Shown in pieces: positions 5,913-23,083 of a stretch of 24,000 nt of DNA. Position 1 is the first letter of the stretch. Each line of letters begins with the position of its first letter. A program made the translations under genes and the position numbers. Under the pieces are notes generated by a model. That model saw nothing but the letters and a program-made list of their open reading frames with translations. It did not search any database and was not told the origin of the DNA. Source of the stretch: Terriglobia bacterium (GTDB taxonomy: Bacteria > Acidobacteriota > Terriglobia > 20CM-2-55-15); contig CAXWPJ010000002.1 in assembly GCA_963664115.2 (NCBI GenBank), positions 775,160-799,159 on the forward strand, in the 5' to 3' direction.

Positions 5913-7327
5913 GTGTTATTGATGACGGCGAGATCTTCTACCTTTCCCTCAAGCAAGTCTCCGAACGTATCGCAAGTGGCGATCTGTCGCCCGTAGAGGT
6001 CCTGAACGCTGTGATCGAGCGCACCTCGGGCCTCGAACCTCGCTTGAACGCTTACATCACACCCACCTTCGAGAGAGCCATGGACGATGCGCGAATGGCC
6101 GAGCGCGAGATTGCGGCTGGCAAATATCGCGGGCCACTGCATGGCGTGCCCATCGGGCTCAAAGACAACTACTGGACGGAGGGCATCCCAACGACCGCCG
6201 GCTCGAAGCTTCTCGCTGATTTTGTCCCGACCGAGGATGGCAACGCAGTCGCCAGGCTTCGGGCTGCGGGCGCCGTAATCACAGGCAAACTCAATATGCA
6301 TGAGCTTGCGATCGGTGGGACGACGACGAACCCCCACTACGGGGCGACACGCAATCCCTGGGGACTGGACCGCATTCCCGGCGGGTCGAGCGGCGGATCG
6401 GCCGCGGCCGTCGCGGCAGGTTTCTGCTTCGCCGCATTGGGCACCGACACGGTCGCGTCGGTGCGCCACCCGGCATCCCACTGTGGCCTGGTCGGGATGA
6501 AAGCAACATTCGGGCGGGTCAGCGTCTTTGGAACGGTGCCCCTCTCCTGGAGTCTCGATCATGTGGGTCCGATCACCCGTACGGTCGAGGATGCCGCGCT
6601 TGTATTGAACCGAATAGCCGGTTACGACCCCAGGGATTCCGGCTCGGTCGACGTCGAGGTGCCTGATTTCACCCGCCGGCTGGGGGAGGACCTGAACGGC
6701 GTTCGGATTGGGCTGCCACGGAAATATTTTTTCGAGCCTCTCGATCCCGAAGTGCGCGACTCGGTCGAAGCGGCCATCGGGGTGCTGCGGGATCTGGGCG
6801 CCAGCATTCGCGACCTTGAGTTTCCAAGCGCCCCGGAAGCCCACGTCATTTTTCCCTTCCTGAGCCGGCCCGAGGCGGCATCGTTTCAGGAAGATTTTAT
6901 TCGCGGGCGGGCTGAGGCATACGGGGATGTCCGATGGAACGTGGAACTGGGAGAGTTGATTCTCGCGACCGACTATATCCGGGCCCAGCGCCTGCGCACC
7001 GCCATGCGGCAGGAACTTGAGGGAATCATGCGGGAGGTCGATGCCTTGGTGATGCCCACCACTCGAACCGTCGCCCACCCTATCGGTGCTCCGTTTACGA
7101 CCGTCGACGGAAAATCCCTGGACGCATTCGGGCTGATGGTGGGTTTGACAGCGCCCTTTTCACTCACGGGTTCGCCGGCGATTTCCGTTCCATGCGGGTT
7201 TAATTCGGAAGGCCTCCCGATCGGGCTCCAGATTGTCGGCCGCGCGTGGGACGAGGCGATGATCCTGCGGATCGGGGCCGCCTACGAAGGCGCGACGCCT
7301 TGGAGTGACAGACACCCCACGCTTTGA
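5909..7327 (+). CDS. Amidase-signature family hydrolase (GatA/AtzE-like)
   Basis: Carries the GGSSGGSAAAVAAG signature and the upstream KDN motif (GLKDNYWT). Length is 472 aa. Confidence 0.9.
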   Translation: MSVIDDGEIFYLSLKQVSERIASGDLSPVEVLNAVIERTSGLEPRLNAYITPTFERAMDDARMAEREIAAGKYRGPLHGVPIGLKDNYWTEGIPTTAGSKLLADFVPTEDGNAVARLRAAGAVITGKLNMHELAIGGTTTNPHYGATRNPWGLDRIPGGSSGGSAAAVAAGFCFAALGTDTVASVRHPASHCGLVGMKATFGRVSVFGTVPLSWSLDHVGPITRTVEDAALVLNRIAGYDPRDSGSVDVEVPDFTRRLGEDLNGVRIGLPRKYFFEPLDPEVRDSVEAAIGVLRDLGASIRDLEFPSAPEAHVIFPFLSRPEAASFQEDFIRGRAEAYGDVRWNVELGELILATDYIRAQRLRTAMRQELEGIMREVDALVMPTTRTVAHPIGAPFTTVDGKSLDAFGLMVGLTAPFSLTGSPAISVPCGFNSEGLPIGLQIVGRAWDEAMILRIGAAYEGATPWSDRHPTL

Positions 7328-7442
7328 CCGAGCGATCAGGACGTTCTGGCGCTGGGCCCATCAGCGACGACCGCTTGACCATTCATTGAGCCACCGGTCA
7401 GTAACACACAGCATCAAACAATCACGCAAAGGAGTTTCTGGA

Positions 7443-8423
7443 ATGGACGGGAAAATCGTGTTTGAAGAACATATGGCAATCCCCGATACCCTGGACGATT
7501 CGCGCACATTCGCCGAAGGATCCGGGAAGTGGGACCAGTTCGCCCGCCAAATCCTGGATATCGAGGACGAGCGTATCGCCCGAATGGACAGCAACGGCAT
7601 TGAATTCGCCATTCTCTCGCTCAACGCCCCCGCGATTCAGGCGATTCTGGACACGGACACGGCGATCGAAGTGGCTACCCGTGCCAACGACCATCTGGCG
7701 GAGGCCGTCGCCAAACATCCGAATCGTTTTGCGGGCTTTGCAGCCCTTCCCATGCAAGATCCGGACGCCGCCTCGGAAGAGCTGATCCGCTCGGTCAAAG
7801 ATCTGGGTTTCAAGGGTGCTCTCGTCAATGGATTCACACAGAAAGGTGTTCCCGATTCGGCGATCTACTTCGATATCCCCGAGTACCGGAGTTTCTGGTC
7901 CACGGTGTCCGAACTGGACGTGCCGTTCTATCTACACCCAAGAATGCAGATTCCTTCACGTGCTCAACCCTATGAAGGGCACCCGTGGCTGATGAGTTCG
8001 CCCTGGGGCTTTGCGGTGGAAACTTCGATCCACGCACTCCGAATGTGTGGTTCAGGCATGTTCGACGATTTTCCCAATCTGAAAATAATTGTCGGCCATC
8101 TCGGTGAACACATCCCTTACGATCTCTGGCGCATCGACGCCCGGATGCGCTTTTCCCGGCGCGGCTACGAGGGCAAGCGCTTTCTCGGCGAGTACTTCCG
8201 CGACCACTTCTATGTGACGACCAGCGGCAATTTCTGTGATCCGTCGTTCCAGTGCGCCCTGGAAGTGATGGGCGCAGCTCGCATGTTTTTTTCGGCTGAT
8301 TATCCATTCGAGAAAATGGAAGATGCTGCCGACTGGTTCGACAACGCCCCCCTGTCCGATGCCGAGCGCCTGCAGATTGGCCGTACCAACGCGATCAAGC
8401 TGTTTAATCTGGAATTGAAGTGA
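7443..8423 (+). CDS. Amidohydrolase-2 family non-oxidative hydroxybenzoate decarboxylase (gamma-resorcylate / 2,3-dihydroxybenzoate decarboxylase-like)
   Basis: ATG 7443 has AAAGGAG 8 nt upstream; the track ORF starts earlier, at 7305. MDGKIVFEEHMAIPDT...LSLNAPAIQA...FAALPMQDPDAA..ELIRSVKDLGFKGALVNGF...PFYLHPR...IIVGHLGE.IPY.LWRID closely follows my remembered gamma-resorcylate decarboxylase sequence. Confidence 0.85.
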   Translation: MDGKIVFEEHMAIPDTLDDSRTFAEGSGKWDQFARQILDIEDERIARMDSNGIEFAILSLNAPAIQAILDTDTAIEVATRANDHLAEAVAKHPNRFAGFAALPMQDPDAASEELIRSVKDLGFKGALVNGFTQKGVPDSAIYFDIPEYRSFWSTVSELDVPFYLHPRMQIPSRAQPYEGHPWLMSSPWGFAVETSIHALRMCGSGMFDDFPNLKIIVGHLGEHIPYDLWRIDARMRFSRRGYEGKRFLGEYFRDHFYVTTSGNFCDPSFQCALEVMGAARMFFSADYPFEKMEDAADWFDNAPLSDAERLQIGRTNAIKLFNLELK

Positions 8424-8704: not shown

Positions 8705-9712
8705 ATGATTATTGATTGTCACGGACACTACACAACGGCGCCGGATGCGCTGGGAGAATATCGAAAGCAGCAGATTGCCGCGTTTGATTCATCCCAACCT
8801 GCGGCAAAAGGCGAGATAAACATTTCCGACGATCAACTCCGCGAGAGCGTCGAGGGTGCGCAACTGAAGTTTCAGCGCGAACGCGGTACCGACATGACGA
8901 TATTTTCTCCGCGCGCGTCGTGGATGGCCCATCACCTGGGCGATGCGATGGTGAGCCAGTACTGGAGTGAACACTGCAATGATTTAATCCATCGCCTCTG
9001 TGGGCTGTATCCGAAAAACTTTGTCGGCGTTTGCCAGTTGCCGCAGTCTCCGGGTGTCGGACCGGCGAACTGCATCGGCGAGCTTGAACGGTGTGTCAAC
9101 GAACTGGGAATGATCGGGTGCAATTTAAGTCCCGATCCCTCCGGCGGCCGTTGGACGGCGCCCCCGCTGAGCGATCCATACTGGTATCCGGTCTACGAAA
9201 AGATGGTCGAGTTGGATGTGCCCGCGATGGTTCATGTCAGTGCTTCCTGCAATCCTGCTTTTCATACGACGGGTGCGCACTACCTCAACGCCGACACGAC
9301 GGCCTTCATGCAGTTTCTGACCTCGGATCTATTCAAGGACTTTCCGGCTCTGAGATTCGTCATACCCCATGGTGGGGGTGCTGTGCCGTATCATTGGGGT
9401 CGGTATCGTGGCATGGCTCAGGACCAGAAGCGTCCGCCGCTGACGGAGCTTATGGGTGGCAACATCTTCTTCGACACCTGTGTCTACCACATGCCGGGAA
9501 TCGAGTTGCTTACAAAAGTCGTACCCACCGACAACATCCTCTTCGGTTCAGAGATGGTCGGCGCCGTTCGGGGTGTCGATCCGGAAACGGGGCACTACTA
9601 CGACGATACGAAACGGTACATCGACCAAGCTTCGTGGCTGAGCGATGAAGAGAAGCAAAAAATATTCGAAGGGAACGCACGCAAGGTGTATCCCCGCATC
9701 AACCGGAAATAG
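8705..9712 (+). CDS. ligJ: 4-oxalomesaconate hydratase-like amidohydrolase
   Basis: GAGGAG lies 5 nt upstream of ATG 8705. MIIDCHGHYT..., MVELDVPAMVHVSASCNPAFHTTGAHYLNADTTAFMQ, LRFVIPHGGGAVPYHWGRYRG, FFDTCVYH.PGIELL and NILFGSEMVGAVRGVDPETGHYYDDTKRYID match my memory of Sphingobium LigJ almost block for block. Confidence 0.8.
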   Translation: MIIDCHGHYTTAPDALGEYRKQQIAAFDSSQPAAKGEINISDDQLRESVEGAQLKFQRERGTDMTIFSPRASWMAHHLGDAMVSQYWSEHCNDLIHRLCGLYPKNFVGVCQLPQSPGVGPANCIGELERCVNELGMIGCNLSPDPSGGRWTAPPLSDPYWYPVYEKMVELDVPAMVHVSASCNPAFHTTGAHYLNADTTAFMQFLTSDLFKDFPALRFVIPHGGGAVPYHWGRYRGMAQDQKRPPLTELMGGNIFFDTCVYHMPGIELLTKVVPTDNILFGSEMVGAVRGVDPETGHYYDDTKRYIDQASWLSDEEKQKIFEGNARKVYPRINRK

Positions 9713-9743
9713 GGGACGGACACTTCATGAAGTGTCCGTCCCC
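9712..9743. repeat. Perfect 32-nt palindrome GGGGACGGACACTTCA|TGAAGTGTCCGTCCCC; copy 1 of a palindromic repeat family
   Basis: Read directly. It starts at the last base of the ligJ-like TAG stop. It shares a 21-nt core, CATGAAGTGTCCGTCCCCTTC, with 18248-18268. It could act as a transcription terminator or attenuator between ligJ and the peptidase gene. Confidence 0.85.
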
Positions 9744-10700
9744 TTCCTGTTCGCGGTTCTGACGATCTCTTTACAGGGTTCGGCGCTAGGCCTCGTTCAG
9801 GACGCCCCCCGTGATCCCGGCTTCGGCGCCCTAGCGCGTGAACATATCGGTGAGCTGTCTGACCGAATCGGTGCGCGTGTCGCTGGAAGCCCGGGTGAAG
9901 TGCGGGCCGCCGGATATATCGAAAATGTTTTCTCCCAAATTGGCTACCCGACCCGCGTCCAACCCTTCAGCTTTTCCGGTGGGCCCCGGGACCGCCGGTC
10001 TACACGGGAATCGGCGAATGTTATTGCTGTGAAGGCAGGATCGTCGAACGAGGAAATCATTGTTGGCGCGCACTATGATTCCGAAGTTCGCGGCCGGGGA
10101 GCGGGGGACAATGCGTCGGGAGTAGGCGTGATGCTCGAAATCGCCGCCGCGATTCGGGACGTCGCGACGCCGTACACGATTCGGTTCATCGCTTTCGGTG
10201 CCGAAGAAGAGGGTCTGGCAGGATCGCGCTATACGGTGAGTGAGATCCCCCCTGAGGACATCGGGCGTGTGGTGGCCATGATCAATCTGGACAGCCTGAT
10301 TGCAGGAGACTTCGCTTACGTCTACGGGGATCGAGGAGACAGAGGTGTGGTTCGTGACTGGGTTCTGGCCCGAGCCAGGGAACAGGGTCTTGATCTGCGG
10401 ACACAACCGGGTGAGAACCCTGAATATCCGAGGGGAACGACAGGAGAGTTTTCCGATCACGCTCCTTTCGAGGACGTGGGCATCCAGTATGCGTATTTTG
10501 AATCGACCAACTGGTCACTGGGAGAGCGAGACGGATACGTCCAGGTTGACCCTCAACTCGGAGAAAACGGTTACATCTGGCATACACCGTTCGATACGAT
10601 GGGCTATATCGAGTCGACGTTTCCTGGAAGGATTGATGCGCGTCTCCACTTGTTTGCGACGATGCTCTACCAGGTATTGACAGAATTTTCCGCCCCTTAG
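9732..10700 (+). CDS. M28-family metallo-aminopeptidase, secreted
   Basis: M28 metal-ligand blocks are present: GAHYDS, GAGDNASGVGVMLEIA, FIAFGAEEEGLAGS, MINLDS, SDHAPF. The start is uncertain. GTG 9732 gives (M)SVPFLFAVLTISLQGSALG as a signal peptide. The track ATG 9645 would overlap the conserved ligJ 3' end by 68 nt. Confidence 0.75.
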   Translation: MSVPFLFAVLTISLQGSALGLVQDAPRDPGFGALAREHIGELSDRIGARVAGSPGEVRAAGYIENVFSQIGYPTRVQPFSFSGGPRDRRSTRESANVIAVKAGSSNEEIIVGAHYDSEVRGRGAGDNASGVGVMLEIAAAIRDVATPYTIRFIAFGAEEEGLAGSRYTVSEIPPEDIGRVVAMINLDSLIAGDFAYVYGDRGDRGVVRDWVLARAREQGLDLRTQPGENPEYPRGTTGEFSDHAPFEDVGIQYAYFESTNWSLGERDGYVQVDPQLGENGYIWHTPFDTMGYIESTFPGRIDARLHLFATMLYQVLTEFSAP

Positions 10701-10744: not shown

Positions 10745-11218
10745 ATGGGTGAAGTGAAGTACGTATCCCGAGTCCAACTGGAAAGAAAGAAGGGTCCGCT
10801 GCGTCTGGCGACAATTCCCGCCGAGAGCGAACCGGTATGGTTCGGGGTTCACGGAGCGATCGCAGAGCATTACGGTGTGGACACTGCGAAACTGGAAGAG
10901 GTCCATGCGACAACGCTCGACTACGTTGTCGCTGCCGCCGGTGGCTGAATGATGGGAACCTTCGGGGGCGCGCTGGAAGCGCGCAAAATTGATGCTTCAG
11001 GTGGTCGGCTTACTGCGGAAGTGAGCGGAGAAGTGGAAACGGACGGCGGTGTGCTGATCATCAAACGTATCCACGTCGCCATGCAGTTGCGTGCATCGGA
11101 AGACGACAGAGAAGTTGTCGAACGGGTGCATGGTGTATTTGCCAACAAGTGTCCCGTCTTTCGTAGTATTGGTCCGGCGATAGCGATAACATCGTCCTAC
11201 GAATTGGTCGGGGATTAA
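10745..11218 (+). CDS. OsmC/YhfA-like thiol peroxidase-family protein with in-frame TGA (10946-10948) at the conserved Cys; candidate selenoprotein or nonsense pseudogene
   Basis: Track ORFs 10739..10948 and 10949..11218 are in the same frame and separated only by TGA. The joined sequence reads ...LDYVVAAAGG[TGA]MMGTFGGAL...ANKCPVFRSIG...ITSSYELVGD, compared with E. coli YhfA ...MEMVLMAAGGCSAIDV...AEKYCSVALML...ITHSYEVVA. GGAG lies 7 nt upstream of ATG 10745. Confidence 0.6.
10968..10984 (+). promoter_or_regulatory. SECIS-like hairpin downstream of the in-frame TGA
   Basis: GCGCGC-TGGAA-GCGCGC has a 6-bp GC stem and a 5-nt loop containing GG. The stem starts 19 nt after the TGA. This fits the loose bacterial SECIS geometry. 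The hairpin is short and could be fortuitous. Confidence 0.35.
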
Positions 11219-12760: not shown

Positions 12761-12831
12761 TCGCTCGGTCGTTCAAACGGCCATCCTGGCCGAACGACCG
12801 GCGACCCTTGCCATCATCCTGATGGCAAGGG
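12761..12831 (-). repeat. 71-nt double-hairpin element, copy A (possible structured RNA or REP-like element)
   Basis: The minus strand reads CCCTTGCCATC-AGGAT-GATGGCAAGGG then TCGCCGGTCGTTC-GGCC-AGGAT-GGCC-GTTT-GAACGACCGAGCGA. The same architecture occurs at 23145..23215 (+), with compensatory stem changes. It lies in the convergent gap 160 nt downstream of the methyltransferase stop, on the same strand. Confidence 0.7.
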
Positions 12832-12871
12832 TTATTGGGATCGGCCGAACGATTAAGCATTCCCCAATACG

Positions 12872-12991: not shown

Positions 12992-13804
12992 CTAGCCAAT
13001 CCGTGTAGCCGTTATCAGCGCATATCCCAGTTGACCTGCGTTGATGGCTTCAAGTGCCGCCTTGGCCATGTGTTTTGCGCTCGTGAAGTCCACGCCGTCC
13101 AGGTCGATCTTCTTGAGTCCGACTGCGATTTCCAGGCCCAGCAACTTCCCGCGAATCTGGTTGACCATTTGCGTGAGTGCATCGTCGTGAGCTGTGACCG
13201 AATCCATCCTGAAACCGGCCGCTTGAAGCATCTCCGTGTAGCCATCGACGGGTCGGGCGTCGGCGATACATGCCACCCACGCCATCAGGGAATCCAGAGC
13301 TTCAGGCAACGTGTCGCTGCGAGTGATGTCGCTGAGGCCGAGGCGGCTTCCTCTCCGCAGGACACGATGGAACTGGGCCCCCGCCTTCGCTTTGTCCGGG
13401 AAGGTACAAAAGGCACATTCGCAGATGATCGCGTCGAATGATGCGTCTTCAAAAGGTAAAAGCTCGGAATCGCCCTGTTGGAATTGGACACGTCCACTGA
13501 GACCGCGTGCGGCGGCTTCCTCGTTTGCCATACGGACGTTGTCCGCTCCGTAATCCACACCCACGACTTCGCAATCAAAGGTTTCGGCAACATGAAGGGC
13601 ACTCGTGCCGGTACCGGAGGCCACGTCCAGAACTCTCAGACCAGGTTCGAGATTCAGTGCCTGTCCGAGTTCAGTGGTCAAGGCCAGTCCGCCCGGATGA
13701 AACGAGTCGCCCAGAAGCAGCCGAACAAAATCCTGTTCGTAAAGTTGCGCGCAGCAGGATTTGAGGTCTTGTCTGGCTGTGGGAAGATCCATCGATTCCT
13801 TCAT
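12992..13804 (-). CDS. Class I SAM-dependent methyltransferase, ArsM-like core
   Basis: SAM motif I is VLDVASGTG. ICECAFCTFPDK aligns with ArsM ISNCVINLSPDK, LGLSDI with LAISDV, and WVACIADA with the ArsM GC.AGA block. There is an N-terminal SCC pair. Its ATG overlaps the radical SAM stop as ATGA (13801-13804). Confidence 0.8.
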   Translation of the reverse strand: MKESMDLPTARQDLKSCCAQLYEQDFVRLLLGDSFHPGGLALTTELGQALNLEPGLRVLDVASGTGTSALHVAETFDCEVVGVDYGADNVRMANEEAAARGLSGRVQFQQGDSELLPFEDASFDAIICECAFCTFPDKAKAGAQFHRVLRRGSRLGLSDITRSDTLPEALDSLMAWVACIADARPVDGYTEMLQAAGFRMDSVTAHDDALTQMVNQIRGKLLGLEIAVGLKKIDLDGVDFTSAKHMAKAALEAINAGQLGYALITATRIG

Positions 13805-15309
13805 GAGTCACCCTTATTGAACGAGAAAGTAACCGGCTGTGGTTCGTATGGGGTGCCTTCTTTGCGAGCCTTGCGTCGTGCGGGTTCCATGCCGTCAAGC
13901 TGCGAACGGGCCTGTTCACGATAGCCCACTGTGTTGTATGCGCAGAACGGGATTTGTTTGCCACCGGGCAGGAGGAATTCCTTACAGCATTTCATCAGGT
14001 TCTTCTGATTGAACGTCCACGGATCCATGAAATCCTGCAACATGATCATGAGCACGTGTTCGGCTATATCGTCCACCGCGATCGATTCCGGAATGCCGCA
14101 GGCCTGACACGAGGCTAAGATCTGTCCGGAGGACTTATCGGAACCGGGAACTGAGGACGAGGACCACAAGCCTTCCAGAGCTTGTGTCACATCCTGGTTC
14201 CAGTCCGGCAGTGCGCGATTGGTGATGTAGTCCAGATAGTCGTCCACGTTGACGACGCGGGGTATGGGAGTCACGGTGTCCCCGTCGATGAACGCGTACG
14301 TCACCGAGTTGCATGTCGGAAAACAGCACGGGACAGGCACGAAATCGCTGACCACGAATTGCTTCTTCGTCTGTTCCTCGATCAACCGCAGAACGTCGGG
14401 TATCGTCATGCGTTCCATGGGATCGTGTGCCATATGACGACCGGTGTGAAACGCCGGCTGGAAGTTGATGCCGCGGACGGCGGGGTGTTTGATCGCCAGG
14501 TCGATGATCTTTCCAAGCTCGTGATCGTTGACCGCACGCTCGATCGCAGGAACAAGCGTGACGCTCAGCCCTATTGCCGCAAGCCTGTCCAGCGCGCGGA
14601 GCTTCTGCTCGAGAATGTCGGGCTCGCCTCGAATGATTCGGTATGTTTCGCTGTCGAAACCGTCGAACTGAAAATAAATGGAAGGACGCGCCAGGTTGAG
14701 TTGTTCTAGAAACGCATCATCGGTGGCGATCCGTTTGCCGTTCGTATTGAGCATGACCATCGGAATACCACGGGCCTTGGCCGCGCCGATGAAATCGATA
14801 ATCTGCGGATGAATCGTCGGCTCCCCGCCGGAAAACTGGACGACTTCGGGGTCGCCCTCGGTACGAACAAAGTCGTCCAGCATTCCCTCAACCTCTTCCA
14901 GAGTGAGGCTGAAGCCGGGACCGGCTTCGGAGAAGCAGAGCGGGCAGCTCATATTGCAGGCGCTGTTTACTTCTATGATTCCGAGACATGCATGCTGCTG
15001 GTGATCCGGACACAGACCACAATCATGAGGGCATCCGTCCTGAATGTCCGTTCCGAAAGCCAAGGGAATAGTGCCGGGCTTGTTGTACTTGCTCTGGGCG
15101 ACATACATCTGGGCGTCGCCGTATACCAATCCCTCAAAGGGCCCACATTCCGGGCAGCGTTTGCGCATGTAGACCTTGTTGTTGCGCAACAGGATCTGGG
15201 CATCGATCACCTTGCGGCATTCCGGACAGATGCTGCGTGTGAGTTCGTAGAAGATGTAGTCGGCGTCTTTCTTCTTTGGTGTTTCGGAAGGCGAAACCTG
15301 TTTTGCCAT
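13801..15309 (-). CDS. Large radical SAM enzyme with N-terminal rubredoxin-like ribbon and extra Cys clusters (Tes/GDGT-MAS-like architecture)
   Basis: CPEC..(20)..CPEC ribbon, then CPHDCGLCPDHQQHAC, then the radical SAM motif CNMSCPLC with GGEP downstream. C-terminal Cys groups are PCCFPTC, CQAC and CC...C. ATG 15309 is preceded by GGAGGA. The track start, GTG 15333, would overlap the upstream stop as GTGA. Confidence 0.85.
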   Translation of the reverse strand: MAKQVSPSETPKKKDADYIFYELTRSICPECRKVIDAQILLRNNKVYMRKRCPECGPFEGLVYGDAQMYVAQSKYNKPGTIPLAFGTDIQDGCPHDCGLCPDHQQHACLGIIEVNSACNMSCPLCFSEAGPGFSLTLEEVEGMLDDFVRTEGDPEVVQFSGGEPTIHPQIIDFIGAAKARGIPMVMLNTNGKRIATDDAFLEQLNLARPSIYFQFDGFDSETYRIIRGEPDILEQKLRALDRLAAIGLSVTLVPAIERAVNDHELGKIIDLAIKHPAVRGINFQPAFHTGRHMAHDPMERMTIPDVLRLIEEQTKKQFVVSDFVPVPCCFPTCNSVTYAFIDGDTVTPIPRVVNVDDYLDYITNRALPDWNQDVTQALEGLWSSSSVPGSDKSSGQILASCQACGIPESIAVDDIAEHVLMIMLQDFMDPWTFNQKNLMKCCKEFLLPGGKQIPFCAYNTVGYREQARSQLDGMEPARRKARKEGTPYEPQPVTFSFNKGDS

Positions 15310-15329
15310 CGTTCCTCCAGCGGGCTGTA

Positions 15330-16736
15330 TCACCGCAACAGTTTTGAAATTCCCCGGATCACTTTTCCCTTAGTGCCGGTGAGTGTCTGTTCGACGGCGA
15401 CGTCCGCAGCGAGTTGCCCCACGGCAGTTGAATACGTTGGATAGGGGTGCATCGTAGCGGCCAAGTCTCTGAGGCGCAGCTTCCTCTCGATCGCAATGAC
15501 GAACTCCGTGATGACTTCGCCGGCCCGCCCCGCCACGATCGTTGCACCCAGAATGATGTCGTCGGCCCCTGTAACGACTTTGAGAAAACCTCGAATATCG
15601 TTTTCGCAGACGGCGCGATCGACATGGCTCATTCCCCGGCGGTGCACCCGGACCGCGTTGCCGAATTGATTTCGAGCTTCTCCCTCGCTCAAGCCAATAT
15701 GCGCTATCTCAGGATCCGTGTATGTGACCCATGGCACGATAGAGGTGAATCCGGAGCTGTGGCCGGGAAGCAGGGCATTGCGAACTGCCTGGAATCCCTG
15801 CCATGCCGCAAAGTGTGTGAACTGAACCCCACCCGTGACGTCGCCCGCCGCGTATATGTGTTTGACACTGGTGCGCAGTTGGTCGTCGACCTCGATGCCC
15901 TTCGGGGTGTGCCGGACGCCGGCTTTGTCCAGGCCGAGTGTCTCCAGGTTTGGGGCGCGGCCTGTGGCTACCAGTAGCAGTTCCGACCGGTTCTGGCCCG
16001 ACGGTGTATCTATGATCACGTAGCTACCGTCATGATAAACCCGGGTTGCCAGGCCTTCCAGAAATCGAATGCCCTCACCTCGGAGAACTTCCAGCATGAG
16101 CTCTCGCGCTTCAGGCTCTTCTCTCGGCAAGAGCGCGACGTCGATTATCGTGACCTGGGAACCCAGCCGCTGGTAGGCCTGGGCCAACTCGACGCCGATC
16201 GGTCCGGCGCCGATGATCGCCATGGTTTTGGGAAGGCGGTCGATGTCGAAGACCTGTTCGTATGTGATGAATGGGGTTTTCTCCAAGCCCGGAATAGGTG
16301 GCAGCATCGGACGGGCGCCGGTCGTGATCAGAAACGCTTTCGCCTTGAGGAGCCGGTCACCGGCCAGCAGAGTTTCCTCATCCACGAACTCGGCCGCGGC
16401 TTGAATGACTGCGACACCAGCCTCCTGGAACGTTTCGGGTGTCTCGTACTGGTAAACCTGACGGATGGCTGCGCTCACGTAGCGCTTCACCTGGCTCATA
16501 TCGACAGTTGGAGGGGACACGGTTATACCGTAATGTGACGCCGTGCGCGCCTCGTGCGCGACCTTGGCGGCTTTGAGCAGCGCTTTGCTCGGGACACAGC
16601 CCGTCCAGGTGCAGTCGCCTCCGATGCGGTCTTTTTCGACCAGAGCTGTTCTCGCTCCCAGCTTCGCGGCAAAATTCGCTGCCGTTATTCCGCCCGATCC
16701 CGCACCGACGATTACAAGGTCGAATGGTGATTCCAT
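15330..16736 (-). CDS. Class I pyridine nucleotide-disulfide oxidoreductase (flavoprotein disulfide reductase; not a canonical MerA)
   Basis: FAD fold VIVGAGSGG. Redox-active GGDCTWTGCVPSK. NAD(P) fold IIGAGPIGVE. GD motif YAAGDV. C-terminal dimerisation-domain HPYPTYS. ATG 16736 shares one base with the MFS TGA (TGATG). The track start is TTG 16739. Confidence 0.9.
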   Translation of the reverse strand: MESPFDLVIVGAGSGGITAANFAAKLGARTALVEKDRIGGDCTWTGCVPSKALLKAAKVAHEARTASHYGITVSPPTVDMSQVKRYVSAAIRQVYQYETPETFQEAGVAVIQAAAEFVDEETLLAGDRLLKAKAFLITTGARPMLPPIPGLEKTPFITYEQVFDIDRLPKTMAIIGAGPIGVELAQAYQRLGSQVTIIDVALLPREEPEARELMLEVLRGEGIRFLEGLATRVYHDGSYVIIDTPSGQNRSELLLVATGRAPNLETLGLDKAGVRHTPKGIEVDDQLRTSVKHIYAAGDVTGGVQFTHFAAWQGFQAVRNALLPGHSSGFTSIVPWVTYTDPEIAHIGLSEGEARNQFGNAVRVHRRGMSHVDRAVCENDIRGFLKVVTGADDIILGATIVAGRAGEVITEFVIAIERKLRLRDLAATMHPYPTYSTAVGQLAADVAVEQTLTGTKGKVIRGISKLLR

Positions 16737-18124
16737 CAAAGTGAGTCCCTCTCCGGAAGATTACGAATGGTTACCAGCGCCACTACGACCAGCGCCACGG
16801 TCCCGTGTATCAATCCGTCCACCCCGAACGCCGCTCCGAGAACACTTCCGATCAGAGCGCCCAGCAGCGCTCCGACACCAAGCAGTGCCGAATATATTCC
16901 CATCGTTGCCCCGCGACCGGCCGCACCCCCGACGATATCTGCAAGCAGGGCCAGAGCTCCCGGCGTGAACCCGCTCTCAACCATCACCGCCGCAGCCAGA
17001 AACACCAGTAGTCCCAGCCGTGGGGCGTTTCCCAACGCGGGAGTATGATTCAAGACATATAGCCCTGCACACACGACCAGTGTTGCCGTCAATCCGGCCA
17101 CGAGAACTGTTTTTCTATCGACGCGGTCGAGAAAGAAACTCCAGATCGTCACGCCGATCGCAAACACGAGGGCGTATCCAAGAAACACCCAGCCGACCTG
17201 TTCCGGGTTGTCCGCGAACAATCCGTTCAAATACTGCGTACTTTCCTGTCGCAGCGTGAGAAGGAAAGTGACCATCGGGCCCAACCAGAGACCCACGATC
17301 GCATTGATCGCGATCCATGCGGGTGCAAGCATCCTGATCGAGGGGTCTCCCAGTGCCCGTCTCAGTCCTTCGAACGCTTCGACCGTGCTCCGGGATTCGG
17401 CCGTTTCCGCGCCAAACCAGAAGGTGGCTGAACTCGCCAGATATATGCCGGCCATCGCGACAAATGCGCCCGTTCCCAAAAGCTGCCAGAGACCCGCACC
17501 GATCGGGGCTCCAAGGGCAAGGCCTGCCAGGAGAGTCAGTTCAAACAGAGCCATCACGCGGCCACGCATGTTAAGCCCGTCTTCGGTCAGGTCTGTCAGG
17601 TAGGCTAGGATAGCCGGTGAGCTGGCCGCCCATGCGCTTCCGTCGACGCTACGGGCAACGAAGAATGCTGGTACTGAGCGGGCCACTCCCAGCAGGCCCA
17701 TCCCGGCTGCACCAAGCAGGCCGCTTCCAATCATCAGGAAGCGGGGAGACAGACGGTCTGCAAGAATCCCCATCGGCAGTGCCCCGATCAGTTCCGCACC
17801 GTAGGCCACCGCACCGAGGAGGCCCACGATCGCCGCGTTCACGTCCTGACCTTGATTTCCGAGGTCGGCAAAGTAGAGTCCAACCAGAACGCCGCCGGCC
17901 CCGCCCGCGATTCGGACGAGCGCGTTTCCCGCGAGCACGACGGGCCAGCGCCGACTATCGTTTCGCAATGAATGTGTTTCCACGTCGTTAAGAGAGGGTG
18001 CCCGAAGATTCACCAACCCTCGTGCGAGAGTTTCACCCGGCCTGCCCATGCTACTGCTTCGTGCGTTCCGGAATCCAAATTTCGGGTTAAGGAAATTCGA
18101 AATCGCCGCAGACTGGGGGGACAC
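16736..18124 (-). CDS. MFS-type transporter (about 12 TM)
   Basis: Repeated hydrophobic spans. A D-R-x-x-R-like loop (GILADRLSPRF) follows TM2. It is the first gene of the operon. The start is uncertain: GTG 18124 or ATG 18049, neither with a strong Shine-Dalgarno sequence. Confidence 0.8.
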   Translation of the reverse strand: MSPQSAAISNFLNPKFGFRNARSSSMGRPGETLARGLVNLRAPSLNDVETHSLRNDSRRWPVVLAGNALVRIAGGAGGVLVGLYFADLGNQGQDVNAAIVGLLGAVAYGAELIGALPMGILADRLSPRFLMIGSGLLGAAGMGLLGVARSVPAFFVARSVDGSAWAASSPAILAYLTDLTEDGLNMRGRVMALFELTLLAGLALGAPIGAGLWQLLGTGAFVAMAGIYLASSATFWFGAETAESRSTVEAFEGLRRALGDPSIRMLAPAWIAINAIVGLWLGPMVTFLLTLRQESTQYLNGLFADNPEQVGWVFLGYALVFAIGVTIWSFFLDRVDRKTVLVAGLTATLVVCAGLYVLNHTPALGNAPRLGLLVFLAAAVMVESGFTPGALALLADIVGGAAGRGATMGIYSALLGVGALLGALIGSVLGAAFGVDGLIHGTVALVVVALVTIRNLPERDSL

Positions 18125-18185
18125 AAATCCCGAAAATTAATGAATATAGCAAGTCAGGTGGATGTTGCCGGTGGGATGTCTTACA

Positions 18186-18277
18186 GAAGGGGACGTGAAG
18201 GGAACGGCCACTTCAGCCGAAATATACTCGTCACGCCCCAATTTCGCATGAAGTGTCCGTCCCCTTCACGTCCCTTC
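18186..18277. repeat. Long imperfect inverted repeat (about 30-nt arms, about 33-nt spacer); copy 2 of the palindromic repeat family, probable terminator of the barrel gene
   Basis: The left arm is GAAGGGGACGTGAAGGGAACGGCCACTTCA (18186-18215). The right arm is TGAAGTGTCCGTCCCCTTCACGTCCCTTC (18249-18277). GCCGAAAT/ATTTCGC extends the pairing inward. The right arm abuts the TGA of the 18276..20786 gene and contains the 21-nt core shared with 9726-9746. Confidence 0.8.
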
Positions 18278-20786
18278 AAAACTGATACCGCATGCCGGCC
18301 TGGATTCGCCGTGGCGAACTGGCGCTGGTGGAGAGCCCGAAGTTTTTCGAGCTTAAGGTGCCACTCGGAGTGCCCAGGTTGGTCATGTTGAAGGCGTTGC
18401 TCAGATTGGCGAAGACGCTGACCCGGGATCTGCCAGCCAATTCAAGTGCTTTCGACAGATTGAACCCCCAAGTCAGCGAATTTGGACCGGTTTCGCTGTT
18501 GCGGACGAGGATGGCCTGTCCCGGCTCGGGATCCAGATCAAAGGCCCCGAAATCTGTTATGACAACACCGGGTCGGGTGAGGTCGGTAGCGAGAGCGGGC
18601 CGGTCTGTGAACTCACCGTCCCTGTTGTTGTCCTTACCCGTCGTGATCGAGTACATGTCGCCGCTCGTGAAGTTGACCACAGTTGTTAGATAGACATCCC
18701 ACGGCAACCTCGAGTTGACGCTCGCGTTGAGGCGGTGTGTCTGTCTCAGGCCCGCACGGCCCCAGTCCCCTCGAAGATCGTAGCTGTTTGCAGGAAGCCG
18801 TCTTCCGTCGCCGTCGCTATGGCCCACGTTACCGCTGTAGTCGACGTTGATGTTGAAGATGCTGAAACGTTGTCGCAATCGGACTTTGAAATTCTTGTGT
18901 ATGGATAGTCCGCTCGATTCCAGTTGGAGAATGTCACCTTCTTCGGGAACAGGCCGGATGCCGTCGGGATGTTCGTCGCTGAGCGTTCCGGGCAGGGGGG
19001 CGTTGGTGTTGCGCATACGGCGCATCTTGAGGCCTCGGTTGTAGTCGAAACTCACTGTCAGGAAGAGGTTGGCTGGCAGGCTCTGCTCAACCGAGATCAG
19101 CGAACTGAAGTAGTAACCGGAGAGGAAGTCCGGTGCGAGGACGCGACGCGAGGGAGGCGGAATAGCTTCAAGATCACCCGCCTGGTAGGGATCCGGCCAG
19201 CCCGGATCCGAAATTCGAATCCGGTGTTGACGTGTTCCATCCTCTTGCAAGACCCTCCGAAACTCCCAGTGGTTGAGCCGCTGATGAAAGAGTCCTGTGC
19301 CACCCCGGACGACGGTCGAGTTTCCCACCGCATACGCAAATCCCAAACGGGGATCGAAATCGTTGCGGTCGTTGAGATTGTTCTGCGTCGAGTAGAGCAG
19401 GCCGAGGTTCAGGGTAAAACGGTTGCTCAGCCGCAAATCACTCTGGACGAAAAATTCACTGTCGACTTGGGTTTGTTCGAATCCAGGATCACCCACGTTG
19501 ACATCGTACTGCTCGGGTTGGCCGCTCCGGAATTTGTCCAGATCCGAGAAGGTAAACCGGCCTTCAAAATTACTTTGCTGTATAGAATTTTCATCCCAAT
19601 AGTCTATCTTGCTCCCCGCTCTCAGCCTCAGACGGGAGCCTTCGTAATAGAGAAGGTTTTTGAACTGCATGCTCGTGGCGTCGAGTTCATTGCGATTCTG
19701 ACCGCCACCGCCATTGAAAGCGTCCAGGACGTTGATCGCCTGTCCCGTCGTGATGGGAATCGTTTCATTGGATTGGTCGTTCCATGAAAAGCTGGTCTCG
19801 TGAACTGTGTTGTCAGAGAAGACAGTGATCTGCCGCAAGTCGAAGCCGACACTTTGTTCGGACGAATTGGAACCGCGTTCAGGCAAGGTGAAACGGCCGA
19901 TACCGTTGTTTTCTTCCGATTCGGAATCGTACTCTACGCCAAAATGAAGGGAATTCGCCTCGTTGAGCTGAAGAATGCCTTCCGCTTCGTAATTCTTCGA
20001 GACACGGGGTCGTGTAATGCCGAGCGTAAACGGCCCCTCCAGCGTCTGTGCAACCACACTCCCCACGTTTTCCTGCCTGTTGTTGTCGATGGAGAAGCTG
20101 GCGGTGAGGCGGTCTTGAATGACGGGACCACTGATGTTTCCACTGATGGCGCGTTCGCGAGACTCAGGTTTGTTATCCGCAGTCGGGTTGCGGGCGTTTA
20201 AGGCATCGTCTTCGAATTCCGCGATAAAATTTCCGTGGAAGGCGCCCGATCCGCCACGTTCGATGACTTCGGTCCGCTGGCCCCCCTGAGGCCCGTTGCT
20301 TCCCGACCGTCCGTTCTCGACATTGAACGTATTGTTCGTGACGCGGATCTGCTGAATCTGGCTGACCTCGGTGCCGGCTTCTTCCGCACCGTCGATCGTT
20401 GCTGCGAGTGTTCCACCTTGAGACTCGAACTCTTCGACCGCGGCCCTTTGATCGATTGTCAGGTAATCGGAGAGCTTGGCCCGGAAGGCATCATGGATCC
20501 ACTGGATACTTGCAAGAGCGCGGTCACGCTCCGCTCCCTCCGGTATTCCATCGCTGAAATCCATGATGTCCCCGAAGAGACTCTCCGAGGCCTGGCGTTG
20601 TTCCTCAACGAGCAGGGTCACCTGGCCTTCCTGTGCCGGGGTAAAAGGAACGCCTGCTTCAGCCAGGACTCGGGAGAGTTGCTCTTTGAGCTGGTCAAGC
20701 GGATTCTGGGTGACCAACTGCGCGTGGGCGGGCAGGGTCGCCAGAACAAGACATAGAACCAGTTGACGTAAATACATTATTCGCAT
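18276..20786 (-). CDS. Oar-like TonB-dependent-receptor-family outer-membrane beta-barrel with atypical helical N-terminal domain
   Basis: Signal peptide ...ATLPAHA|Q. An Oar-type block is present: FHGNFIAEFEDDALNARNP. A long beta-rich region ends ...RIQAGMRYQF with a terminal aromatic residue. The usual carboxypeptidase-regulatory N-domain is replaced by about 110 helical residues containing FTPAQ and LTIDQ motifs. Confidence 0.8.
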   Translation of the reverse strand: MRIMYLRQLVLCLVLATLPAHAQLVTQNPLDQLKEQLSRVLAEAGVPFTPAQEGQVTLLVEEQRQASESLFGDIMDFSDGIPEGAERDRALASIQWIHDAFRAKLSDYLTIDQRAAVEEFESQGGTLAATIDGAEEAGTEVSQIQQIRVTNNTFNVENGRSGSNGPQGGQRTEVIERGGSGAFHGNFIAEFEDDALNARNPTADNKPESRERAISGNISGPVIQDRLTASFSIDNNRQENVGSVVAQTLEGPFTLGITRPRVSKNYEAEGILQLNEANSLHFGVEYDSESEENNGIGRFTLPERGSNSSEQSVGFDLRQITVFSDNTVHETSFSWNDQSNETIPITTGQAINVLDAFNGGGGQNRNELDATSMQFKNLLYYEGSRLRLRAGSKIDYWDENSIQQSNFEGRFTFSDLDKFRSGQPEQYDVNVGDPGFEQTQVDSEFFVQSDLRLSNRFTLNLGLLYSTQNNLNDRNDFDPRLGFAYAVGNSTVVRGGTGLFHQRLNHWEFRRVLQEDGTRQHRIRISDPGWPDPYQAGDLEAIPPPSRRVLAPDFLSGYYFSSLISVEQSLPANLFLTVSFDYNRGLKMRRMRNTNAPLPGTLSDEHPDGIRPVPEEGDILQLESSGLSIHKNFKVRLRQRFSIFNINVDYSGNVGHSDGDGRRLPANSYDLRGDWGRAGLRQTHRLNASVNSRLPWDVYLTTVVNFTSGDMYSITTGKDNNRDGEFTDRPALATDLTRPGVVITDFGAFDLDPEPGQAILVRNSETGPNSLTWGFNLSKALELAGRSRVSVFANLSNAFNMTNLGTPSGTLSSKNFGLSTSASSPRRIQAGMRYQF

Positions 20787-21015
20787 CGAAGGCGTGCAGA
20801 ATCAAAGACTTCATCGATTCTAACGAGATGACAGGGTTTTGTCTAAGCCCGAGTCGGTCCCGCTTGACCCGGAACCGGCAAAACCTCTTGACGCTCCAAG
20901 CCCCGAAGATGATCATGGGCACACAGCTTCTTGGCGAAGTTGTTTACTGATGATTCGGGCAAGGATTCGGATTGCCTCTCGCACCTTATGCTCAGGGTGC
21001 GGGTTTGGAGAGCTT

Positions 21016-22029
21016 ATGAAATCGAGAACAGTGCTTGTTGGGGTATCGTGTCTTGTCGGGGCCGCGCTCGTTCTGGCCCAGGCCCAGGCACAGGAAGTGC
21101 GACCGGGCGAAAGGGAATGGCTTGTCCGGGCGATTGCTGGCGTTGTCGCTTCCGGAGCCGAGTGGACGCTGGCCTGGGACGGCTATGACAATGCGGACGG
21201 AATTGTCGGTGCCCCCGACGGCAGCCTTCTGTTTGCTCAGGAACAGCCCAGCCGAGTGCGCAGGCTCGCGCCCGACGACAGCACCTCGGTTTACATGGAG
21301 GGCACCGGTCACGCCGGATCCATCGCCATTGATTCCGAGGGCCGTCTGCTTGCTGTACAGCGGGGTTGCACGGACCCGGGGCGACCTGCCGAAATTGAAT
21401 GCAGCGTAGCGCCGAAACTCAGTGTCCTGGCTCCGGATTACGAGGTCCGGGTGGACAGGTTTTCAAACGGCGACGCGTTTGGCCGGCTCAACGACCTGGT
21501 TGTCGATCGCAGGGGCGGCGCGTACTTCACGGTCGGAGGCGCCTACTACGCCAGTCCGGACGGCGAAGTGATCACGGTTGCTGCGGCCGGTGATATCCGT
21601 TCAAACGGGATTACGCTCAGCCGGGACGAACGAACCTTGTACGTGACCAACCGCGAGGTCGTCGTCGCTTTCGATGTGCAGCCGGATGGGTCGGTGCGCA
21701 ACCGCCGTGATTTCGGCACACTCGATGGAGATGGCGGCGGTGACGGGATGACCATCGATGCCGAAGGCCGGGTCTACGTAACCGGAAACCTGGGTGTCCA
21801 TGTGCTGAGCCCGGAGGGAGAGCATCTCGGAATGATTCCGACGCCGCGCCGTCCCATAACCGTTGCCTTCGCCGGACCCGAGAAGAAGACCCTTTATATT
21901 GTAGGTAGCGGGGCCGTTGACGTCTTCAGAGAACGGAATTTTGAAACCCCTGAGGGTGTTCGCAATAATTCGAAGACCATATACAAGATTCCCATGCTGG
22001 CCGAAGGATTCCAGGGGCGGGCAAAGTAG
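21016..22029 (+). CDS. Secreted SMP-30/gluconolactonase/LRE-like beta-propeller protein, paralog 1
   Basis: ATG 21016 (MKSRTVLVGVSCLVGAALVLAQAQA) has GGAG upstream. Motifs NGITLS.DE.TLYVT, DGM.ID.EGR.YV and AFAGP.KKTLY are typical of this fold. The track ORF from 20839 adds an implausible leader. Confidence 0.8.
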   Translation: MKSRTVLVGVSCLVGAALVLAQAQAQEVRPGEREWLVRAIAGVVASGAEWTLAWDGYDNADGIVGAPDGSLLFAQEQPSRVRRLAPDDSTSVYMEGTGHAGSIAIDSEGRLLAVQRGCTDPGRPAEIECSVAPKLSVLAPDYEVRVDRFSNGDAFGRLNDLVVDRRGGAYFTVGGAYYASPDGEVITVAAAGDIRSNGITLSRDERTLYVTNREVVVAFDVQPDGSVRNRRDFGTLDGDGGGDGMTIDAEGRVYVTGNLGVHVLSPEGEHLGMIPTPRRPITVAFAGPEKKTLYIVGSGAVDVFRERNFETPEGVRNNSKTIYKIPMLAEGFQGRAK

Positions 22030-22138
22030 AGGTCTCATCTGGGATTCTCGACGATGCCGCTGATGCAGATGACGTCTGCATGTGTTCTTGGCATTCATAT
22101 CGCTGGTTTTTCCCCGCGCGCGCGGGATTGGAGAAATT

Positions 22139-23083
22139 ATGAAATCGAAGACTGTATTCACGATTATCGGATGTGTTCTGGGGTCGACCCTGATGTTTAG
22201 CTCGGTGACTGCGGCACAGGGGCCGCAGGCGGAGACGCCGGTCACGACTCGGAGCATCCCGGGGGTCGTCGCTGCCGGTGTGAGGGTCGAACATGTCTGG
22301 AAAGGATTGCAGGCAGCGGATGGTCTCATCAGCGAACCGGACGGAACGCTCCTGCTGCCCGAGCAGCGAGCGGATAGGATCGGCAGGTTCAACGCGGACG
22401 GAACAGTCACGCCCTACCTGGAAGACACGAACGAAGCCGGTGGACTCGCGTTCGACGCGATGGGCCGCCTCATTTCTGTAGAGAGAAGAATGCCCCAGGT
22501 GAGGGTCCTGGTTCCCGAACGCAGAGTCCTGGCGGACAGCTACGAAGGTGAGCCGCTCGGGCGGCTGAGCGATATCATCGCAGACCAGAAAGGGGGTGTG
22601 TATATCACCGAGGGCCGCAACGCCTCGGTCTACTACCTCAACGCAGGCGGCAGACTCAACCGCGTCGCCGACGACATCGACGGCGCAAACGGCATCACGC
22701 TGAGTCCGGATGAGAGCACCCTCTACGTGACCAATCGAGAGGCCGGCATCCTGGCCTACGATGTTGCCCCGGACGGGGGTATCGGAAACCGCCGCCCCTT
22801 CGTGCAGCCGGAAGGCGGACAGGACGGCCTGGCAGTCGACGGCACGGGACGGCTCTATGTCGCCGGCCAGGCTGGCGTTCAGGTCTTCAGCCCCCAGGGA
22901 CAGTTCCTGGGACTCATTCCCATACCCCGGCCTACGACGACTCTGGCCTTTGCCGGACCGGACAAGAAGACGCTCTACGTCATCGGCCGCGGCAACGATC
23001 TTCCAGGCGGTGACAGCGGCGATGCAAGGTCGATGTACAGGATCTCAATGCTTGCGGAGGGTTTCAAAGGCCGCGCCAAGTAA
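22139..23083 (+). CDS. Secreted SMP-30/gluconolactonase/LRE-like beta-propeller protein, paralog 2
   Basis: ATG 22139 (MKSKTVFTIIGCVLGSTLMFSSVTAAQG). The start region GCGGGATTGGAGAAATTATGAAATCGAAGAC is nearly identical to that of paralog 1 (GCGGGTTTGGAGAGCTTATGAAATCGAGAAC). It shares the C-terminus MLAEGF.GRAK. Confidence 0.8.
   Translation: MKSKTVFTIIGCVLGSTLMFSSVTAAQGPQAETPVTTRSIPGVVAAGVRVEHVWKGLQAADGLISEPDGTLLLPEQRADRIGRFNADGTVTPYLEDTNEAGGLAFDAMGRLISVERRMPQVRVLVPERRVLADSYEGEPLGRLSDIIADQKGGVYITEGRNASVYYLNAGGRLNRVADDIDGANGITLSPDESTLYVTNREAGILAYDVAPDGGIGNRRPFVQPEGGQDGLAVDGTGRLYVAGQAGVQVFSPQGQFLGLIPIPRPTTTLAFAGPDKKTLYVIGRGNDLPGGDSGDARSMYRISMLAEGFKGRAK

Follow-up and report, generated by a model that had tools for sequence, protein, structure and literature searches.

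The 24,000-nucleotide window analysed here (contig CAXWPJ010000002.1, positions 775,160 to 799,159, from an uncultured soil bacterium of the Terriglobia, phylum Acidobacteriota; all coordinates below are those of the window) contains a gene for a radical SAM (S-adenosylmethionine) enzyme that is related over its whole length to the archaeal synthase of glycerol dialkyl glycerol tetraethers (GDGTs), known as GDGT-MAS or Tes. It is the third of four genes read in the same direction:

16736 to 18124, (-) strand: major facilitator superfamily (MFS) transporter, whose gene opens the operon and probably has its true start somewhere downstream of the first GTG
15330 to 16739, (-) strand: predicted MerA-like class-I flavoprotein disulfide reductase, with a conserved redox-active cysteine pair (C43-x4-C48)
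13801 to 15333, (-) strand: radical SAM gene of a non-Tes subfamily ("CC-type") that has the GDGT-MAS/Tes fold; read from the first GTG at 15333, it encodes 510 amino acids (aa)
12992 to 13804, (-) strand: class-I SAM methyltransferase; its ATG start shares nucleotides with the stop codon of the radical SAM gene (ATGA)

There is a similar overlap between the stop of the MFS gene and the start of the reductase gene (TGATG), whereas the reductase gene ends about 20 nt before the likely start of the radical SAM gene. These overlapping or near-contiguous junctions agree with the preliminary description of this DNA, which had placed the radical SAM gene in an operon with a methyltransferase, a reductase and an exporter. 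The ATG at 15309 is favoured as the start of the radical SAM gene because a GGAGG Shine-Dalgarno sequence stands just before it and because the resulting product, 502 aa, has the length of a 94%-identical homolog (P0001).

The radical SAM protein and its relation to Tes

Two Pfam families are matched by the protein, Zn_ribbon_HMPTM (residues 28-71; 4.8e-18) and Radical_SAM (residues 121-280; 3e-18). Its cysteine motifs are as follows:

15121 to 15252, (-) strand: N-terminal zinc-ribbon or rubredoxin-like iron site, C36/C39/C60/C63 (CPEC...CPEC), residues 28-71, Pfam PF23545
14986 to 15033, (-) strand: N-terminal auxiliary cluster motif CPHDCGLCPDHQQHAC, with C101/C105/C108 and H111 assigned from the alignment to MJ0619; H114 and C116 are extra
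14935 to 14958, (-) strand: radical SAM CX3CX2C motif CNMSCPLC, C126/C130/C133
14311 to 14328, (-) strand: PCCFPTC motif, C336/C337/C341; C341 aligns with a cysteine of the Tes C-terminal cluster
14098 to 14109, (-) strand: CQAC pair, C409/C412, kept in the subfamily and absent from Tes
13942 to 13989, (-) strand: KCC...FC, C449/C450/C464, region of the C-terminal cluster ligands

The preliminary description had listed a CPxC...CPxC ribbon, the four-cysteine motif CPHDCGLCPDHQQHAC, CNMSCPLC, PCCFPTC, CQAC and KCC...FC in a protein of about 500 aa; all are present where it located them. The extra cysteines to which it drew attention are conserved as well. Among 80 acidobacterial orthologs (73-94% identity) recovered with their loci from species-representative genomes, all 19 cysteines are kept, the exceptions being a change of C63 to His in seven sequences and of C449 to Tyr in one. 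The pattern of motifs is more than chance, since the Pfam domains are matched and the 19 cysteines are conserved in this set. The best related locus (L001) is syntenic with the window over the whole neighbourhood. A six-peptide pattern scan, which sets a lower bound, gave homologs in at least 316 species genomes, and the family comprises more than 5,000 related proteins.

The closest solved structure is that of GDGT-MAS (MJ0619, PDB 7TOL), matched over the whole length with E 4.5e-79 and 31% identity. An AlphaFold model resting on a 97-sequence alignment (predicted local distance difference test, pLDDT, 87.4; predicted TM-score, pTM, 0.87) superposes in Foldseek on 7TOM/7TOL with a TM of 0.78-0.80 over 490 columns; a single-sequence version was unusable (pLDDT 37). 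Every other PDB match to the model covers the radical SAM core only, with a TM of about 0.35. The kinship with the Tes/GDGT-MAS family that had been proposed is thus strong in sequence and upheld by the predicted structure. Four metal sites have been described in MJ0619 (Lloyd et al. 2022, PMC9433317). C9/C12/C33/H36 bind a rubredoxin-like iron, and C73/C77/C80 together with a conserved His hold the N-terminal cluster; the other two are the radical SAM cluster and a C-terminal cluster bound by three cysteines and the labile ligand Met439. In the sequence alignment, the mononuclear iron ligands correspond to C36/C39/C60/C63, with Cys replacing His36 of MJ0619; the N-terminal cluster ligands to C101/C105/C108/H111; the radical SAM cluster ligands to C126/C130/C133; and those of the C-terminal cluster to C341, C449-450 and C464. 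Judged by this alignment, all four ligand sets of Tes have counterparts in the protein, and on that ground the description of its "cofactor layout" as that of Tes holds. The further claim, that the cysteine inventory fits the Tes cofactors, stands in so far as every ligand set is present; the inventory exceeds the Tes set by four to five conserved cysteines.

Several features separate the protein from genuine Tes. On the NCBIfam Tes model (NF045702) it scores 328.1 bits against a cut-off of 450, with the best stretch confined to residues 32-340; the scores of genuine Tes-type representatives are 481 and 638 bits. Over its full length the protein is matched best, among the NCBIfam models, by that of the radical SAM (seleno)protein TrsS (NF045646), at 317.8 bits against a cut-off of 490 over residues 32-469; the nearest outgroups score 260-391 bits on the same model. 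Met439 and Tyr459 of Tes, the former being the labile cluster ligand, do not vary among 1000 archaeal homologs. The protein has Gln433 and Phe453 in their place, and within the subfamily position 433 is Q, K, T or H and position 453 is E, F or Q. A control set of 80 Tes-type metagenomic loci gave Met in 78/78 and Tyr in 77/78 sequences. The extra cysteines draw the same line. Counted over 97 aligned subfamily sequences, C336, C412 and C450 are invariant, C116 is present in 96, C409 in 93 and C337 in 67. At 116, 409 and 412, Tes-type sequences carry aliphatic or polar residues, with Cys absent or nearly so; Cys stands at 336 in only 17/80 and at 450 in only 19/80 of the controls. H114 and C116 are conserved only in the non-Tes subfamily. 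The cysteine at position 63 is limited to the acidobacterial clade, Tes and most relatives having His there. C409 and C412 fall in the sole low-confidence segment of the AlphaFold model.

The protein thus shares with Tes the four-domain fold, the rubredoxin-like ribbon, the N-terminal cluster site of three Cys and a His, the CX3CX2C motif and the cysteines of the C-terminal cluster; it differs in the fourth ribbon ligand (Cys, not His), in having Gln and Phe for Met439 and Tyr459, and in the extra C116, C336 (with C337 in many members), C409, C412 and C450. It belongs to a separate, uncharacterised subfamily of the GDGT-MAS/Tes fold. Very probably, the enzyme is not a tetraether synthase. Because the Tes signature residues are missing and the gene has an ArsM-like methyltransferase partner (see below), its product is probably not a membrane-spanning lipid. 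The Joint Genome Institute (JGI) label "7,8-dihydro-6-hydroxymethylpterin dimethyltransferase", attached to many homologs, was rejected because the corresponding assignment for MJ0619 was not reproducible.

The partner genes and their association with the radical SAM gene

All seven cysteines of the methyltransferase are conserved in Acidobacteria. When the protein is aligned with a genuine ArsM, encoded in an arsR-arsM-arsC-acr3 operon (L085), C130 and C179 coincide with the two As(III)-binding cysteines of ArsM, one following strand 4 (SNC) and the other lying in the C-terminal domain (GC[VI]SGA). These two residues are invariant in all partner methyltransferases examined, fused and haloarchaeal forms included. 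C17 and C18 make up an N-terminal CC segment in which C18 aligns with the CC of ArsM; the haloarchaeal partners have no such segment. In ArsM, the N-terminal cysteines (this segment and the GCG cysteine) are required when As(III) is methylated for the first time. The best NCBIfam match is the DVU_1556 family (NF045667), with 131 bits against a cut-off of 155 and a range of 121-148 bits for all partners. The arsenite methyltransferase model ranks next, and first for the Asgard protein. The NCBIfam ArsM model itself gives 103.4 bits against a cut-off of 263, with no ars-operon context, and the AST-ArsM models are far below (50 and 32 bits). From the aligned cysteines and these scores, the partner is predicted to be an ArsM-like, cysteine-dependent SAM methyltransferase. 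That TrsS is the best full-length match of the radical SAM protein, and DVU_1556 the best family of its partner, suggests that a parallel pairing of such enzymes may exist in anaerobes. The present pair differs in that both scores lie below the cut-offs (318 vs 490 and 131 vs 155) and in that selenocysteine is absent. A literature search for TrsS, MduS and MbdU returned a table entry only.

The reductase is closest to the catalytic cores of MerA (E about 1e-75) and scores 361.5 bits on the MerA model, whose cut-off is 454. A Cys pair is absent from its C-terminus (...GISKLLR), as is an NmerA domain from its N-terminus. Identification as a mercuric reductase was therefore rejected, the Hg-binding C-terminal Cys pair and NmerA both being missing; from its sequence, the flavoprotein is taken to be a MerA-like disulfide reductase. 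For the MFS protein, sequence searches gave no solved relative and no informative relative.

The methyltransferase gene lies directly downstream of the radical SAM gene in 78 of the 80 acidobacterial loci, and the other two loci end at a contig edge. The reductase family is represented in 60/80 and the MFS family in 58/80, either upstream and co-directional or divergent. No gene families other than these four are conserved across the loci. Identities to the radical SAM protein are 73-94%, against 40-89% for the partners.

The radical SAM-methyltransferase pair is also found in Asgard archaea (L081, L089), in Chloroflexota (L083) and on other contigs (L087, L088). In L088 the order runs from AhpC through a reductase belonging to the same subfamily as the one in the window, and then an HD protein, to the radical SAM enzyme and finally the methyltransferase. 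On a plasmid of Mycolicibacterium vanbaalenii JOB5 (L084), the pair is accompanied by genes for glutaredoxin, an MFS protein, a protein disulfide oxidoreductase and CcdA. Haloarchaeal megaplasmids carry the pair together with disulfide reductase, redoxin, DsrE, TauE/SafE, DUF3179 and AhpD-like genes, as well as genes for an ArsC-like low-molecular-weight phosphatase, HAD-II and MFS proteins. One protein (P0223) is a natural fusion of a partner-type methyltransferase with the radical SAM enzyme. In the control set, by contrast, no methyltransferase homolog was found beside the Tes-type genes (0/80 loci, of which 65 have at least 900 bp of downstream sequence), nor were reductase or MFS homologs; two weak generic methyltransferase matches, 1.4-2.3 kb away, were the only ones. 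The adjacency of the radical SAM and methyltransferase genes is near-obligate across bacteria and archaea, and the two enzymes may well work as a unit. The preliminary description had remarked that the gene's context was not an obvious one for lipid synthesis and that a different coupling might be carried out. Both points gain from the shortfall on the Tes model, from the substitutions at Met439 and Tyr459, and from an ArsM-like partner seen in none of the 80 Tes-type loci.

Other subfamilies of the radical SAM fold are fused to a MobA-like nucleoside triphosphate (NTP) transferase, with or without an HD domain (P0222, P0227). Further fusions, to Lgt (prolipoprotein diacylglyceryl transferase) and to DUF5714, were seen among the proteins examined (P0222, P0227, P0167 and P0251), and Lgt is also adjacent to the radical SAM gene in a Chondrinema plasmid (L172, 5253-7374). 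The superfamily appears to hold several distinct, uncharacterised functions.

Other features of the window and of related loci

Past the methyltransferase stop, by about 160 nt, a perfect 11-bp stem, CCCTTGCCATC/GATGGCAAGGG, occupies positions 12805-12835 on the (-) strand. It has no T-run; it may be the terminator hairpin of the operon, missed by a consensus terminator scan. The scan of the window for promoters and terminators gave nothing beyond chance, and an Rfam scan of the window gave no match. At the other end of the operon, in the 150-bp gap between an outer-membrane beta-barrel gene and the MFS gene, a hairpin of -59.3 kcal/mol (z -7.2) is predicted at 18170-18285 on the (-) strand. 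Its arm sequence (19-21 nt) recurs as an inverted repeat at 9711-9746, at the junction of amidohydrolase and peptidase genes. The element resembles a repetitive extragenic palindromic (REP)-like sequence and was not found in related loci. A defence system was considered and rejected: PADLOC returned just generic viperin and methyltransferase matches.

Elsewhere in the window, an 89-aa open reading frame at 10949-11218, (+) strand, matches only the C-terminal part of an OsmC-like peroxiredoxin domain, being either a truncated gene or one with a mis-called start. Tandem paralogs of the SMP-30/gluconolactonase/LRE-like type (20839-22029 and 22082-23083, (+) strand) stand beside the large outer-membrane beta-barrel gene (18276-20786).

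Among the related loci, 12 acidobacterial ones encode, in or near the cluster, an anion transporter of the PHO4/PiT family whose Cys-x-Cys loop is conserved; in L012 it is encoded directly upstream of the radical SAM gene (6736-7845). The transporter hints at uptake of phosphate-like or other oxyanions for the pathway. An extracytoplasmic function (ECF) sigma factor and a zf-HC2 (HxxxCxxC) anti-sigma factor are encoded beside the cluster in L018 (3088-3966) and in 10 other loci; such pairs are of a kind able to sense thiol-reactive stress. About five loci (L052, 5514-6404; L034, 6457-7377; L010, 2887-3165; and others) have DUF692/DUF2063 gene pairs near the module, in some cases beside a gene for a small secreted Cys/Lys-rich peptide, as in bufferin/MNIO-like cassettes. 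On the Mycolicibacterium plasmid, homologs of M. tuberculosis Rv1678 and Rv1681 stand beside the pair (L084, 1876-7197), with the disulfide oxidoreductase, acyl-CoA dehydrogenase and PhnD-like genes nearby, an arrangement that we take to resemble the Rv1676-Rv1681 cluster. On a plasmid of Halorarius halobius (L171), a gene of the low-molecular-weight phosphatase family (6473-6883) is directly upstream of the radical SAM gene. Its product has the CX5R loop and the downstream Cys pair typical of thioredoxin-coupled ArsC, with 62 bits against a cut-off of 174.

Possible chemistry of the module and its implications

Tentatively, and as a serious possibility rather than an expectation, we infer that the module links radical C-H activation to trapping of the carbon radical by a soft heteroatom, followed by methylation, thiol recycling and export. 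The radical SAM enzyme would cleave SAM to the 5'-deoxyadenosyl radical and abstract a hydrogen from an sp3 carbon of its substrate. That substrate is probably hydrophobic, given that the pocket region equals that of Tes in hydrophobicity and that sister subfamilies are fused or adjacent to Lgt. Tes passes through a C-S(cluster) intermediate, which a second lipid radical resolves (PMC9433317). Here the carbon radical would not be joined to a second lipid tail; it would be caught by a soft heteroatom in the Cys-rich C-terminal domain, either cluster sulfide (compare the C-S intermediate of Tes) or a Cys-bound atom of the S, Se or As(III) type. The methyltransferase would then bind the heteroatom through Cys130 and Cys179 (plus Cys18) and methylate it. 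ArsM catalysis yields an intramolecular disulfide that is reduced by thioredoxin; the MerA-like reductase may re-reduce the disulfides formed in the present case, and the MFS protein would export the product.

Such a scheme would follow the logic of ArsL/ArsM/ArsQ, or of ArsS/ArsM, on a different radical SAM scaffold. Like the module, the arsinothricin genes arsQML combine a radical SAM enzyme, a Cys-dependent methyltransferase and an exporter, and the methyltransferase acts on the product of the radical SAM enzyme: ArsM methylates the product of ArsL. The Cys motif of ArsL, RCCLKC, has been proposed to hold As(III) and not a cluster, and is comparable with PCCFPTC and CQAC here. ArsL differs in cleaving SAM non-canonically to a 3-amino-3-carboxypropyl (ACP) radical, and arsQML lie in an ars operon, unlike the cluster in the window. 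ArsS has in common with the present enzyme a Cys-rich C-terminal domain and an ArsM-type methyltransferase; it belongs to another radical SAM family and itself adds the 5'-deoxyadenosyl group. Neither ArsL nor ArsS (TIGR04167) is among the best 25 of the 38 NCBIfam matches to the radical SAM protein, and the likeness is one of gene-cluster architecture. As to the heteroatom, arsenic is suggested by the methyltransferase cysteines, by the ArsC-like neighbour in one haloarchaeon and by the PiT transporter inserted in the operon in the 12 loci; sulfur or selenium is suggested by neighbours of the DsrE, TauE and thioredoxin types and by the near absence of ars genes.

A number of observations weigh against this proposal. 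Classical ars genes are essentially lacking around the 80 acidobacterial loci (ArsR in 1/80, Acr3 in 1/80, ArsC in 0/80), for which reason the cluster is not called an ars operon. The ArsM GCG cysteine is replaced in the methyltransferase (FHPGGL), and the best solved relatives of the latter are the N-/O-methyltransferases MitM and PEAMT (E about 1e-21, vs 1e-10 for ArsM), so that the resemblance to ArsM rests mainly on the catalytic cysteines and the profile scores. Relatives of the radical SAM enzyme without an adjacent methyltransferase exist (L082, L086). The extra cysteines could simply provide a fourth ligand, or build a fourth cluster serving electron transfer. Hydropathy of the C-terminal pocket region is the same as in Tes and therefore cannot decide between a lipid and a non-lipid substrate; with this pocket and the Lgt-linked sisters, the substrate could still be a lipid, and even a lipid coupling is conceivable. 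Lastly, every chemical step above is inferred.

If the heteroatom is not a metalloid, the proposal reduces to a special case in which S or Se from an auxiliary cluster is inserted into a C-H bond and then methylated, as in a split methylthiotransferase, or in which a low-molecular-weight thiol is built and its disulfide reduced by the flavoprotein. This version is unlikely on the whole. In its favour, a C-S bond to the C-terminal cluster is formed in Tes (PMC9433317), ars genes are nearly absent, and the neighbours of the pair include DsrE, TauE/SafE, thioredoxin, redoxin, AhpC, AhpD-like and VKOR proteins and mycothione-reductase/MerA-type reductases, several of these families having selenoprotein forms. 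MiaB and RimO offer a precedent for radical C-H activation, capture on cluster-bound sulfur and use of a SAM methyl group, but they do so in one polypeptide with a UPF0004 domain, and homology to them is limited to the radical SAM core. Genes for sulfur donation or cluster repair are not consistently linked to the pair in Acidobacteria. An ArsM-type Cys pair would, moreover, be unexpected in a thiol S-methyltransferase; no such enzyme known to us needs one. Alternatively, a nucleotide-linked or cofactor-like small molecule (for example one related to pterin or to a Mo, W or Se cofactor) might be modified by the radical SAM enzyme and tailored by the methyltransferase. We regard this as improbable. 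The relatives with fused MobA-like NTP transferase and HD domains (P0222, P0227), the HD protein adjoining the pair in L088, the DVU_1556 family as best match of the methyltransferase and the (rejected) pterin label of JGI all point in this direction, as does a C-GCAxxG-C-C protein near the pair in L089: the namesake cluster of DVU_1556 presumably includes an NTP transferase, an adenosine monophosphate (AMP) ligase and a C-GCAxxG-C-C protein. The fused proteins, however, belong to other subfamilies, with Met at 433 and no C336, and the 80 acidobacterial loci have no conserved NTP transferase. Besides, the assignment of MJ0619 as a pterin methylase was not reproduced, and its pocket is a hydrophobic tunnel (PMC9433317).

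There is also a rather small chance that the enzyme is after all a bacterial counterpart of Tes, joining two iso-C15 tails to give iso-diabolic acid or branched GDGTs (brGDGTs), with the methyltransferase, reductase and MFS protein modifying or flipping the lipid. The full Tes fold with all four cofactor sites, and a C-terminal region as hydrophobic as that of Tes, are what such an enzyme would have, and the loci come from acidobacterial orders that we take to match subdivisions 1, 3, 4 and 6, which make iso-diabolic acid. The role has been published for bacterial Tes homologs, including a 32%-identical protein of Edaphobacter aggregans, as well as for Solibacter usitatus, although Tes homologs are on record in just 3 of 14 acidobacteria that produce iso-diabolic acid, and reviews and surveys up to 2026 still treat the function of bacterial Tes homologs as unconfirmed. 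The other enzyme in question, the bacterial membrane-spanning lipid synthase Mss, likewise belongs to the radical SAM enzymes and has been proposed to join lipid tails, aided by an auxiliary cluster; it is only remotely related, comes from anaerobes and is reported absent from Acidobacteria, which favours a Tes-like route. Against such a route, the Met and Tyr found throughout the 1000 archaeal Tes and in nearly all Tes-type controls are missing from the protein, which also falls below the NCBIfam cut-off for Tes. The same pair lies on Mycolicibacterium and haloarchaeal plasmids, and to our knowledge neither mycobacteria nor haloarchaea make membrane-spanning lipids. Finally, C-C coupling requires no Cys-dependent methyltransferase, and the partner occurs in none of the 80 Tes-type loci.

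Returning to heteroatom capture and methylation, its most far-reaching form is a long shot: a Tes-derived machine that adds a methylated soft heteroatom to the terminal carbon of a lipid or alkyl chain. In the boldest version this would be a bacterial arsenolipid-type route leading to a terminal methylated As on a long alkyl chain. The bond made by the Tes-fold enzyme would then be C-As (or C-S or C-Se) rather than C-C, with methyl groups coming from the ArsM-like partner. The pairing with a methyltransferase is unmentioned in the literature found up to 2026; Haft & Tolstoy 2025, which defines TrsS, lay outside the coverage of that search and may describe part of it.

Few terrestrial palaeoclimate proxies are used as widely as branched GDGTs, the biosynthesis of which is still unsolved. 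Genomes and metagenomes are being surveyed for the number of bacterial Tes homologs in them, taken as a sign that brGDGTs can be made. Such counts may mislead, because a widespread acidobacterial homolog is a distinct paralog that lacks the Tes signature and is tied to an ArsM-like methyltransferase. The present analysis defines a compact cassette of two to four genes, found in soil bacteria, Asgard archaea, Chloroflexota and haloarchaea, and points to a new type of reaction on the Tes scaffold, in which formation of a carbon-heteroatom bond would be followed by methylation.

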